From a virus, in the IMG/VR virus record IMGVR_UViG_3300045988_115369: a stretch of DNA of 41,577 nucleotides; one strand, written 5' to 3'. Position 1 is the stretch's first letter, and each line of letters starts with the position of its first letter. The notes beneath the pieces are model-generated. The model was not told where the DNA came from and made no database searches. It saw only the letters and a program-made list of their open reading frames with translations. Both the position numbers and the translations under genes were made by a program. Below, piece by piece: positions 38,341 through 38,540 of this stretch.

Positions 38341-38408
38341 ACAATAAAAAAGTTCCCATATAAGTAATACCTTTAGGATTAAACTATAGGTATTATTTAT
38401 ATGGGAAC
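38341..38408 (-). terminator. Strong stem-loop terminator (about 20 bp plus U6) downstream of phi-7/phi-8
   Basis: GTTCCCATATAAGTAATACCT (38352..38372) pairs with AGGTATTATTTATATGGGAAC (38388..38408) with one mismatch. The minus strand continues UUUUUUAUUGUUUUU. Confidence 0.75.
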
Positions 38409-38426
38409 AATTAACAATTAACAATT
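38406..38426. repeat. 3 x 7-bp tandem repeat AACAATT (minus strand AATTGTT)
   Basis: Read directly. The unit matches the upstream half of the phage promoter (TAATTGT). Confidence 0.85.
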
Positions 38427-38439
38427 TAAGTGCATCACT

Positions 38440-38490
38440 AGGTATCTAAGAAAATACTTTAGGTATCTAATAGAATACTTTAAGTATCTC
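38440..38490. repeat. About 2.4 copies of a 21-bp tandem repeat that form two 13-bp palindromes 21 bp apart
   Basis: AGGTATCTAAGAAAATACTTT, AGGTATCTAATAGAATACTTT, then AAGTATCTC. The palindromes are ATACTTTAGGTAT (38454..38466) and ATACTTTAAGTAT (38475..38487). Confidence 0.85.
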
Positions 38491-38493
38491 TCT

Positions 38494-38516
38494 TCCCCTT
38501 CTACGTGCCACAATTA
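38494..38516 (-). promoter_or_regulatory. Phage-RNAP promoter phi-7
   Basis: Minus strand TAATTGTGGCACGTAGA|AGGGGAAGAG. The 17-mer and start region are identical to phi-4. Confidence 0.8.
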
Positions 38517-38517
38517 A

Positions 38518-38540
38518 ATTTTGGTTATGTACCACAATTA
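38518..38540 (-). promoter_or_regulatory. Variant phage-RNAP promoter phi-8 (tandem with phi-7)
   Basis: Minus strand TAATTGTGGTACATAAC. It has one change in the GGCAC core. Confidence 0.55.

Follow-up and report, generated by a model that had tools for sequence, protein, structure and literature searches.

Initiation of replication in phage T7 has long been described as needing just a phage promoter and adjacent AT-rich DNA, and the promoters phiOL and phiOR were reportedly named by Dunn and Studier in 1983 for their presumed origin function. On the T7 genome, gene 1 ends at 5822 and is followed by phi1.1A (5848), phi1.1B (5923) and the start of gene 1.1 (6007). The promoters phi1.1A and phi1.1B are the primary origins of T7, while phiOR and phi6.5 are secondary origins (PMC8373140; PMC12796468). 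We analysed a viral DNA stretch of 41,577 nucleotides (IMG/VR record IMGVR_UViG_3300045988_115369), which we call the window, and describe a unit at 38341-38540 that lies 442 nt past the stop codon of a T7-type RNA polymerase (RNAP) gene, with two small ribbon-helix-helix (RHH) genes in between, and upstream of the DNA-metabolism genes. We tentatively propose that this unit may be the counterpart of the T7 primary origin, that is, a transcription-activated origin at which replication would start. Coordinates are given on the plus strand, and the features of the unit are read on the minus strand.

The window is the genome of a circular, temperate T7-like phage. Its two ends (1-119 and 41459-41577) form an exact 119-bp repeat, indicating a circularly assembled contig with 41,458 bp of unique sequence, on which position 41546, where the RNAP gene starts, coincides with position 88. 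The minus strand carries nearly all genes, in the order known from T7: RNAP, nucleotide kinase/DUF3310, gp2.5-like single-stranded DNA-binding protein (SSB), endonuclease I, amidase, primase-helicase and family A DNA polymerase. A T7-type terminase is encoded as well. The replisome genes matched PHROG 239 (1e-187), PHROG 112 (7e-27) and Pfam DNA_pol_A, and the T7-type DNA polymerase, primase-helicase and gp2.5-like SSB expected alongside a T7-type origin are all present. The best match of the RNAP, at 36% identity, was to RNAPs of the T3/T7 group, and a DNA-level search against sequenced phages gave no match. About 60 relatives were found in IMG/VR, with RNAP identities from 98% down to 36%, and integrated relatives were identified in bacterial genomes of Dialister (78%) and Phascolarctobacterium (45%), those in Dialister being intact and including a prophage of Dialister sp. 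i34-0019-2H8. Since the methyltransferase and kinase genes of the window are 99-100% nucleotide-identical to those of a Dialister prophage, the host is almost certainly Dialister, a gut Negativicute. Our literature search found no paper on temperate T7-like prophages of Negativicutes.

The unit between the RNA polymerase and DNA-metabolism genes

The phage promoters share the 12-mer TAATTGTGGCAC, which occurs in the window in seven exact copies and one copy with one mismatch, all on the minus strand and all at gene ends or in intergenic DNA. The extended consensus, TAATTGTGGCAC-RTAGA/AGGGGA, has a T7-like layout. The unit opens with a tandem pair of these promoters spaced by 24 nt, at 38540..38529 (TAATTGTGGTAC) and 38516..38505 (Table 1). 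The upstream copy carries GGTAC and, judging from its start region, is probably a weak initiator; the 23-mer of the downstream copy is common to the promoter at 30220 and nearly identical to that at 6111. Downstream of the pair lie the two 13-bp palindromes of a 21-bp tandem repeat, the one at 38475-38487 being perfect (6-1-6) and the one at 38454-38466 having a single mismatched pair. Single perfect 13-bp palindromes are ordinary in this genome (8 observed, 11.8 expected). Two like palindromes no more than 30 nt apart are unique in the genome: one such pair was observed, against 0.02 in shuffles. The palindromes carry a sequence motif, ATACYTWWAG, for which five of the seven genome-wide matches fall in 38367-38487, and motifs of this type are referred to below as boxes. 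Among the eight phage promoters of the window, only the 38516/38540 leader contains boxes, and the 38516 leader also has the highest AT fraction of the eight in +1..+100 (0.71). The AT-richest 200-nt segment of the whole genome is 38288-38487 (76% AT), and the centre of the unit is formed by three perfect AATTGTT heptads. On the minus strand, TAATTGT occurs only at the eight promoters and twice in the heptads.

The unit ends in a long hairpin with a T6 run behind it (38351..38346). At -26.7 kcal/mol this is the strongest combination of hairpin and T-run in the genome, and its arms hold inverted copies of the box (AATACCTATAG / CCTAAAGGTATT). By its predicted structure, the hairpin is an intrinsic (class I), Tphi-like terminator, and its stem could be an RNase III substrate too. 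An RNA started near 38499 would be about 154 nt long and folds with z = -4.0 against shuffles. The search for coding potential returned a single open reading frame (ORF) in the unit, a 31-aa TTG ORF that starts inside the promoter. Rfam gave no match to the unit at the gathering score and only chance-level matches to the hairpin, permissive thresholds included; over the whole window it identified one tRNA only. This tRNA-Met gene (anticodon CAT) is located at 23756-23831 on the minus strand, between the capsid and tail genes.

The original prediction for this stretch had proposed a T7-origin-like unit with tandem promoters, two 13-bp palindromes 21 bp apart, heptads resembling the upstream half of the promoter, and a terminator, yielding a transcript of about 155 nt. 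All these elements were found where it had placed them, on the minus (coding) strand, and the transcript length calculated here agrees with it. The tandem promoters and the palindromes are real, with the reservation that one promoter copy and one palindrome are each imperfect. The heptads are indeed three and perfect, but their likeness to half a promoter is lost in deeper lineages, where just the AT-richness is kept. Similarly, the hairpin and its U6 run were as described, but the stem is longer than the 20 bp given there.

The module and its boxes in relatives and in T7

We compared the unit with those of about 15 relative lineages, whose RNAP identities run from 98% down to 44%, and used 15 non-redundant units for statistics. 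A phage promoter was found right after the RNAP gene in all of these lineages, each with its own promoter sequence, and the promoters lead into 100-250 nt of noncoding DNA with 62-76% AT. When RHH genes are missing, the unit directly follows the RNAP gene. The promoter core shifts as the RNAP diverges (GTGGCAC, GTGACAT, GTCACAC, GAGACAC), which is the behaviour expected of a cognate promoter. Dyad symmetry was significant in 14 of the 15 units, with z values of about -2 to -11.

Genomes of group A (RNAP identity 98%) carry the same unit, with a single palindrome plus the degenerate site in two of them (L002 and L010; L numbers denote relatives). The second palindrome is a 21-bp duplication present only in the window, L001 and L016, or three of the five group A genomes, and missing from L002, L010 and all of group B, so that the repeat counts 2.4 copies in the window, 1.4 in L002/L010 and one in group B. 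Judged by this distribution, the 21-bp spacing is a recent, polymorphic duplication. The tandem promoter pair originated from a 24-bp insertion in group A relative to group B. In group B (78-85%, including the Dialister prophage) we found one promoter, one palindrome (ATACTTTAAGTAT), ATTCCTAGTGAT and degenerate heptads of the version AATTGATAATTGTTAATAGTT, followed by the same hairpin with a run of 7-12 T and then a new promoter. Group C (61%) has one RHH gene, tandem promoters, other repeats (CTTATAG, AATTGTAATAGT) and a different hairpin, again with CTTAAG in its arms and a T-run behind it, and group D (53-55%) has no RHH gene, one promoter and CTATAGAAGTCTTATAGAAGT-type repeats before a new promoter. 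In the lineages at about 45% identity, RHH genes are not seen and the promoters have quite another sequence, with a promoter still right after the RNAP stop codon. Their 100-250 nt of noncoding DNA contain boxes, including GATACCTATAAG, GATACCTTAAAT, ATATCTTAAAGATAT and CCTTAAGG, in both orientations around TTAAT-rich centres. In L020, L026-28 and L049, a terminator and then a fresh promoter close the unit; other units continue into the next gene. Altogether, three independent lineages (A, C and the L020 group) combine tandem promoters with a closing terminator, and TTAAT-rich cores take the place of the heptads in the deeper lineages. The left arm of the hairpin is invariant in 17 unique relatives, while the right arm shows uncompensated changes; the hairpin-arm sequence occurs once per related phage contig and in no other genomic context.

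To assess the boxes statistically, an unbiased k-mer screen of the 15 units against dinucleotide shuffles was used. The screen returned promoter and Shine-Dalgarno words as well as the boxes, namely GATACCT (10 observed vs 0.7 expected, in 7 of the 15 units), CTATAAG (18 vs 1.8) and CTTAAAG (15 vs 1.6). The post-RNAP noncoding units of the relatives are enriched in GATACCTWWAG / GATACYTWWAG and CTTWAAG boxes, and over the rest of the same loci the enrichment was 9-fold for GATACCT, 11-fold for CTTWAAG/CTTAAG and 49-fold for ATACYTWWAG.

Boxes of this kind are also found in T7. The sequence after phi1.1B reads CCTTAAGG-TTTAA-CTTTAAG-AC-CCTTAAG-TGTTAATTAGAGATTTAAATTAAAG...CTTTAAG and is the densest box cluster of T7, with 4-5 boxes in 88 nt vs about 0.1 expected. 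When boxes were counted in +1..+100 of all 17 T7 promoters, phi1.1B had six, phiOL four and phi6.5 two; the others had at most one, except phi1.1A, whose score of two comes from its overlap with the phi1.1B leader. The leaders of phi1.1B, phiOL and phi6.5 are also the three most AT-rich of T7. In other phages, four tandem aACTTTAAGat boxes follow the post-RNAP promoter of FE44, two or three tandem CTTTAAG/CTTAAAG boxes follow that of fPS-26 and KN4-1, and a K1-5-like coliphage carries AATACCTA boxes in both orientations between two promoters. The likeness to a T7 origin put forward in the original prediction is thus borne out in position, in AT-richness, in the presence of the module in about 15 lineages, and in CTTAAG-type boxes common to T7 leaders.

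Table 1. Positions of the unit's features and of selected genes and promoters in the window
Feature	Position	Strand	Details
Upstream phage-type promoter copy, TAATTGTGGTAC-ATAAC/CAAAAT	38518..38540	-	One mismatch to the 12-mer; without G-rich start
Consensus phage promoter, TAATTGTGGCAC-GTAGA/AGGGGA	38494..38516	-	Exact 12-mer; predicted start near 38499
21-bp tandem repeat, 2.4 copies	38439..38489	-	Tandem Repeats Finder (TRF) score 81, highest-scoring tandem repeat of the window
Palindrome in repeat, ATACTTAAAGTAT	38487..38475	-	
Palindrome in repeat, ATACCTAAAGTAT	38466..38454	-	
Degenerate third site, ATACCTAGTGAT	38445..38434	-	
Three perfect AATTGTT heptads	38406..38426	-	AT-rich core of the unit; TRF 3.0 copies, 100%
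Long hairpin plus T6	38346..38408	-	Arms 38352-38376 / 38384-38408, 25 nt, 92% complementary, 7-nt loop
Next phage promoter, TAATTGTGGCAC-AAAAC/AGAGAG	38281..38303	-	Exact 12-mer; 5' hairpin after it at 38260-38293
T7-type single-subunit RNAP, 854 aa	38982..41546	-	Pfam RNA_pol 1e-101
Sigma-70-type host promoter of the RHH operon, TTGACA-17-TACAAT	38931..38969	-	11/12 consensus positions, TG extension
RHH1, ribbon-helix-helix protein, 59 aa	38728..38907	-	Pfam RelB 2e-8, RHH_9 9e-6; PHROG Arc-like/CopG-like repressors
RHH2, ribbon-helix-helix protein, 56 aa	38538..38708	-	Pfam RelB 2e-6
Cys-rich zinc-ribbon-like protein, 126 aa	37832..38212	-	First gene after the unit; TTG start 38212, AGGAGG 8 nt upstream
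Tyrosine integrase	4006-5160	+	Strand opposite to most genes

Origin, operator, small RNA or leader

We regard a T7-type origin as the best reading of the unit, because what temperate and virulent members have in common looks like a DNA-level function tied to the promoter, the post-gene-1 position and the box-flanked AT core. By analogy with T7, the phage RNAP would start at the 38516 promoter, perhaps also weakly at 38540, and would transcribe into the box-flanked AT-rich core, where the transcript or an R-loop would open the duplex and supply a primer, or an entry or loading point, for the T7-type replisome. The hairpin and T-run would then end the short origin transcript. The same hairpin would end the RNAP-RHH1-RHH2 operon, whether read by the phage RNAP from promoter 176 or by the host RNAP from the sigma-70 promoter. 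With termination at the hairpin, as predicted from the anatomy of the unit, the DNA-metabolism genes would be shielded from both the origin and the operon transcripts, and they would restart from their own promoter at 38303.

We infer a role of the boxes in replication initiation from the same analogy. They are common to T7 phi1.1B, phiOL and phi6.5, to K1-5-like coliphages and to Negativicute prophages. It is doubtful, however, that GATACYTWWAG/CTTWAAG boxes around a TTAAT-rich core make up a conserved sequence-specific cis-element of the origins of the T7 supergroup. If they did, origin choice would depend not merely on a phage promoter and any AT-rich DNA but also on a box that is recognised, for example as a signal at which the primase-helicase or the RNAP loads or pauses, and the RHH proteins of temperate members could gate this box during lysogeny.

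Several observations weigh against an origin at this unit or against a part of the boxes in it. In T7-group coliphages CTTTAAG adjoins the ribosome-binding sites of ordinary genes (phi9, phi10 and phi17 leaders), and the box may be a leader or translation feature there and not an origin feature. Of the other Autographiviridae sampled, Ralstonia RpT1, Mesorhizobium Lo5R7ANS, Pasteurella PHB02 and Vibrio JSF35 have no such post-RNAP module. The box patterns were partly refined after inspection of the data. Within groups A and B, conservation of the unit does not exceed that of the genes on either side, and no conservation island is seen; the flanks are just as similar, owing to the mosaic make-up of these genomes. 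GC skew is uninformative on the origin since the genes share one strand. Moreover, the T7 origin itself has no internal terminator, and a strong terminator 150 nt past a consensus promoter would fit a discrete small RNA equally well.

An alternative that we consider unlikely is that the unit is an operator or insulator of the lysogeny circuit, in which a protein bound to the palindromes (+13 to +66) would block the phage RNAP, as lacO does in T7lac. The bound protein would be RHH2, the Cys-rich protein or another phage repressor, and the terminator would prevent transcripts of the RHH operon, which is expressed in the lysogen, from reaching the lytic genes. Such a circuit would suit a temperate phage with an integrase and intact Dialister prophage relatives, in which two RHH genes driven by a sigma-70 promoter stand immediately upstream and the hairpin is the first terminator after them, and repressor control of RNAP promoters has been proposed in other temperate T7-like phages (PMC10134795). 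The palindromes lie two helical turns apart just downstream of the start site, and an adjacent RHH gene together with palindromic, tandem subsites in helical phase is what an RHH operator would show. However, the 21-bp spacing behind this phasing is a polymorphic duplication, and site and recognition strand were not found to covary: lineages with one and the same palindrome vary in their RHH2 beta-strand (E/R/Q, K/R, T/S). Nor does the site disappear with the protein, as the palindrome AATACTTAAAGTAT is also present in L026 and L028, where searches of the 7-10 kb loci gave no RHH hit, and the same palindrome or boxes occur in virulent coliphages. RHH2, whose relatives are confined to groups A and B, was rejected as the binder on these grounds; RHH1 already has its own probable, covarying operator; and the transcript to be repressed encodes nothing. 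The suggestion in the original prediction that the repeats are sites for a dimeric protein could not be upheld for the RHH proteins, and its other suggestion, iterons, failed on the fewer than three copies, their origin by a polymorphic duplication, and the lack of an adjacent initiator gene: no Rep/O-like initiator was found among the neighbours, which are the RHH proteins, the Cys-rich protein without a family, and a DNA methyltransferase. The unit was also considered as a target of this methyltransferase, an idea rejected because L005 and L007 lack the gene and still keep the unit, and as a phage attachment site (attP), rejected because the unit is intact beside RNAP-RHH in the integrated Dialister prophage (L070) and is not split into attL and attR.

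Two further explanations place the function in the RNA. It is quite improbable that the phage RNAP makes from the unit a small noncoding RNA of about 154 nt, discrete and abundant, that acts as a regulator, sponge or decoy through its boxes and hairpin. An ORF-free stretch of about 150 nt between a consensus promoter and the genome's strongest terminator would be in keeping with this, as would a predicted fold that beats shuffles, a sense-strand bias of GATACCT (8 of 10 copies) and the closed units of promoter, terminator and new promoter in four lineages (A, B, C and the L020 group). On the other hand, no Rfam family matched, and the module of most lineages lacks a terminator and forms the 5' leader of the gene that follows. 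Selection on RNA structure was not detectable in the 15 units: sense folds are no better than antisense folds, dyad symmetry is equally strong in the antisense and so does not point to selection of the sense RNA, and the changes in the hairpin are uncompensated. The imperfect palindrome would give a C-A mismatch in the sense RNA and a G-U pair in the antisense RNA. Finally, we think it very improbable that the unit is an ordinary 5' leader or processing region, in which the hairpin would be an RNase III site like T7 R1.1 that separates the RNAP-RHH message from downstream messages and the palindromes would be stabilising 5' stem-loops. In T7, this intergenic region does hold the RNase III hairpin R1.1, and the T7 unit folds on the sense strand only; the 25-bp stem seen here is long enough for RNase III, and 5' hairpins follow other promoters of the window, too. 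Yet in this lineage there is no gene between the leader and the T-run terminator, the 13-bp palindromes would form only 5-bp AU-rich stems, and sequence-specific boxes shared from E. coli to Negativicutes hosts are not expected of structure-specific processing sites.

Taken together, we continue to favour the T7-type origin, tentatively. An origin of this type is a known kind of element, and its variant in undescribed temperate T7-like prophages of Negativicutes would be new, with its palindromic box arrays, perfect heptads, dedicated terminator and interposed RHH operon. The module keeps its position and box grammar in uncultured gut Negativicute prophages in spite of widely diverged RNAPs and promoters, and it provides a concrete candidate origin for an unstudied phage group that could serve as a portable RNAP-dependent origin cassette. 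The box signature across families, if it is real, would add something new on the origins of T7 itself, and it raises the question of whether origin function in T7 is influenced by the CTTAAG-type boxes of the phi1.1B, phiOL and phi6.5 leaders. Besides, the unit illustrates how a single strong terminator may keep the RNAP-regulator operon of a temperate T7-like phage apart from the lytic genes.

Neighbouring elements and known systems

The RHH operon has a sigma-70-type promoter, in which an inverted repeat, ACACACCTAT/ATAGGTGTGT, flanks the -10 hexamer on both sides. This repeat covaries with RHH1 in three lineages (groups A, B and C; L003-L015, L014/L055), where it takes the versions ACACACCTAT/ATAGGTGTGT, AAAGCCCTACAT/ATGTAGGGCTTT and ATTGTCCT/AGGACAAT, and it is probably an autoregulatory RHH1 operator. 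Like RHH1, RHH2 is RelB/RHH_9- and Arc/CopG-like, and its TAA stop codon falls inside the upstream phage promoter. Its nearest solved structure is the RelB antitoxin; TAL-effector repeats, which ranked first in the PDB search with RHH2, were discarded as an artefact because no stretch passes alone. There is no terminator between the RNAP gene and the RHH genes, which makes the long hairpin the first terminator after the RNAP-RHH1-RHH2 block. The Cys-rich gene is the first gene after the unit in groups A-D, and its product had no significant family match in Pfam or PHROG. A mechanical 175-aa ORF (37832-38359, minus strand) that begins at ATG 38359 crosses the hairpin and the promoter; the real start of this gene is TTG 38212. 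The DNA methyltransferase gene (37218-37898) is 100% identical in the Dialister prophage L070 and missing from other group B genomes, and these phages are strongly mosaic.

Elsewhere in the window, a phage promoter (176..165, minus strand) lies directly upstream of the RNAP gene, and its leader (86-176) contains a hairpin with T5 and then T11 ahead of the ATG. From this arrangement, the RNAP gene may be under positive feedback and have a possible attenuator, along the lines proposed for LUZ100 (PMC10134795). A second pair of tandem promoters, spaced by 27 nt, was found at 6100-6138 on the minus strand just after the terminase gene, the phiOR position of T7. Both tandem pairs combine an upstream copy of ACATA type, the type also seen in the promoter of the RNAP gene itself, with a downstream copy of ACGTAGA type, a pattern that hints at two promoter classes in this phage. 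A second copy of the module after this pair was considered and rejected: the 6111 leader and the unit have no significant similarity, their local alignment being within chance. The 10-mer CACTAGGTAT occurs in the unit (38436-38445, plus strand) and in the second-pair leader (6005..5996, minus strand) in opposite orientation, again at chance level by local alignment. A second terminator near 25137 (about 25100-25200), after the capsid gene and thus at the Tphi position of T7, has the hairpin ACACACATCT...AGGTGTGTGT with T-runs on both strands. Among the relatives, post-RNAP noncoding blocks are duplicated in L049 (2600-2800) and L055 (6930-7120), and their copy number varies within lineages. 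Other lineages have perfect-palindrome arrays upstream of the RNAP gene (TGACGAAAACGTCA three to four times in L024 2253-2352 and L037 745-822), and GAGTATTAATACTC is found at several promoter-proximal sites in L032, L034 and L043; both are candidate operators of lysogeny regulators.

Compared with the T7 primary origin, the unit is alike in its post-RNAP position, in tandem promoters pointing in gene direction, in an AT-rich stretch directly after them, in CTTAAG-type boxes that flank a TTAAT-rich core, and in the T7-type replisome encoded with it. Unlike in T7, the RNAP gene is separated from the unit by two RHH genes and a sigma-70 promoter, the boxes take the longer form of GATACYTWWAG palindromes within a 21-bp tandem repeat, three perfect heptads are present, no R1.1-type hairpin lies between the two promoters, and a strong hairpin terminator closes the unit ahead of a separate promoter; the phage here is temperate with a Negativicute host, and the origin role is putative. 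The phiOL leader of T7 has the same order of elements as the unit (CTTAAAG, CTTAAAAG, an AT-rich core, CTTAAAG, CCTATAGGATAC). The phiOR region finds its parallel in the second tandem promoter pair after the terminase gene, but that pair's leader does not resemble the unit. The hairpin shares with T7 Tphi and R1.1 a stable stem followed by a U-run, but its stem is much longer and AU-rich, and termination at it is predicted and RNase III cleavage possible.

With the operators of Arc, Mnt and CopG the unit has in common adjacent RHH genes and palindromic sites spaced by whole helical turns; it differs from them in that its sites do not lie over a promoter driving the RHH genes, show no covariation with RHH2, and also occur in loci without a visible RHH gene, while RHH1 has a separate, probable operator that covaries with it. 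Iteron origins such as lambda ori and those of theta plasmids likewise place direct repeats of about 21 bp beside an AT-rich segment, but the repeat here has 2.4 copies, or 1.4 in sister genomes, and no adjacent gene for a Rep- or O-type initiator. Lastly, the temperate T7-like Pseudomonas phage LUZ100 resembles the phage of the window in its integrase, its small repressors and the phage promoter immediately ahead of its RNAP gene (PMC10134795); the regulators in the Dialister phage are RHH proteins encoded downstream of the RNAP gene, in place of a MarR-integrase operon.

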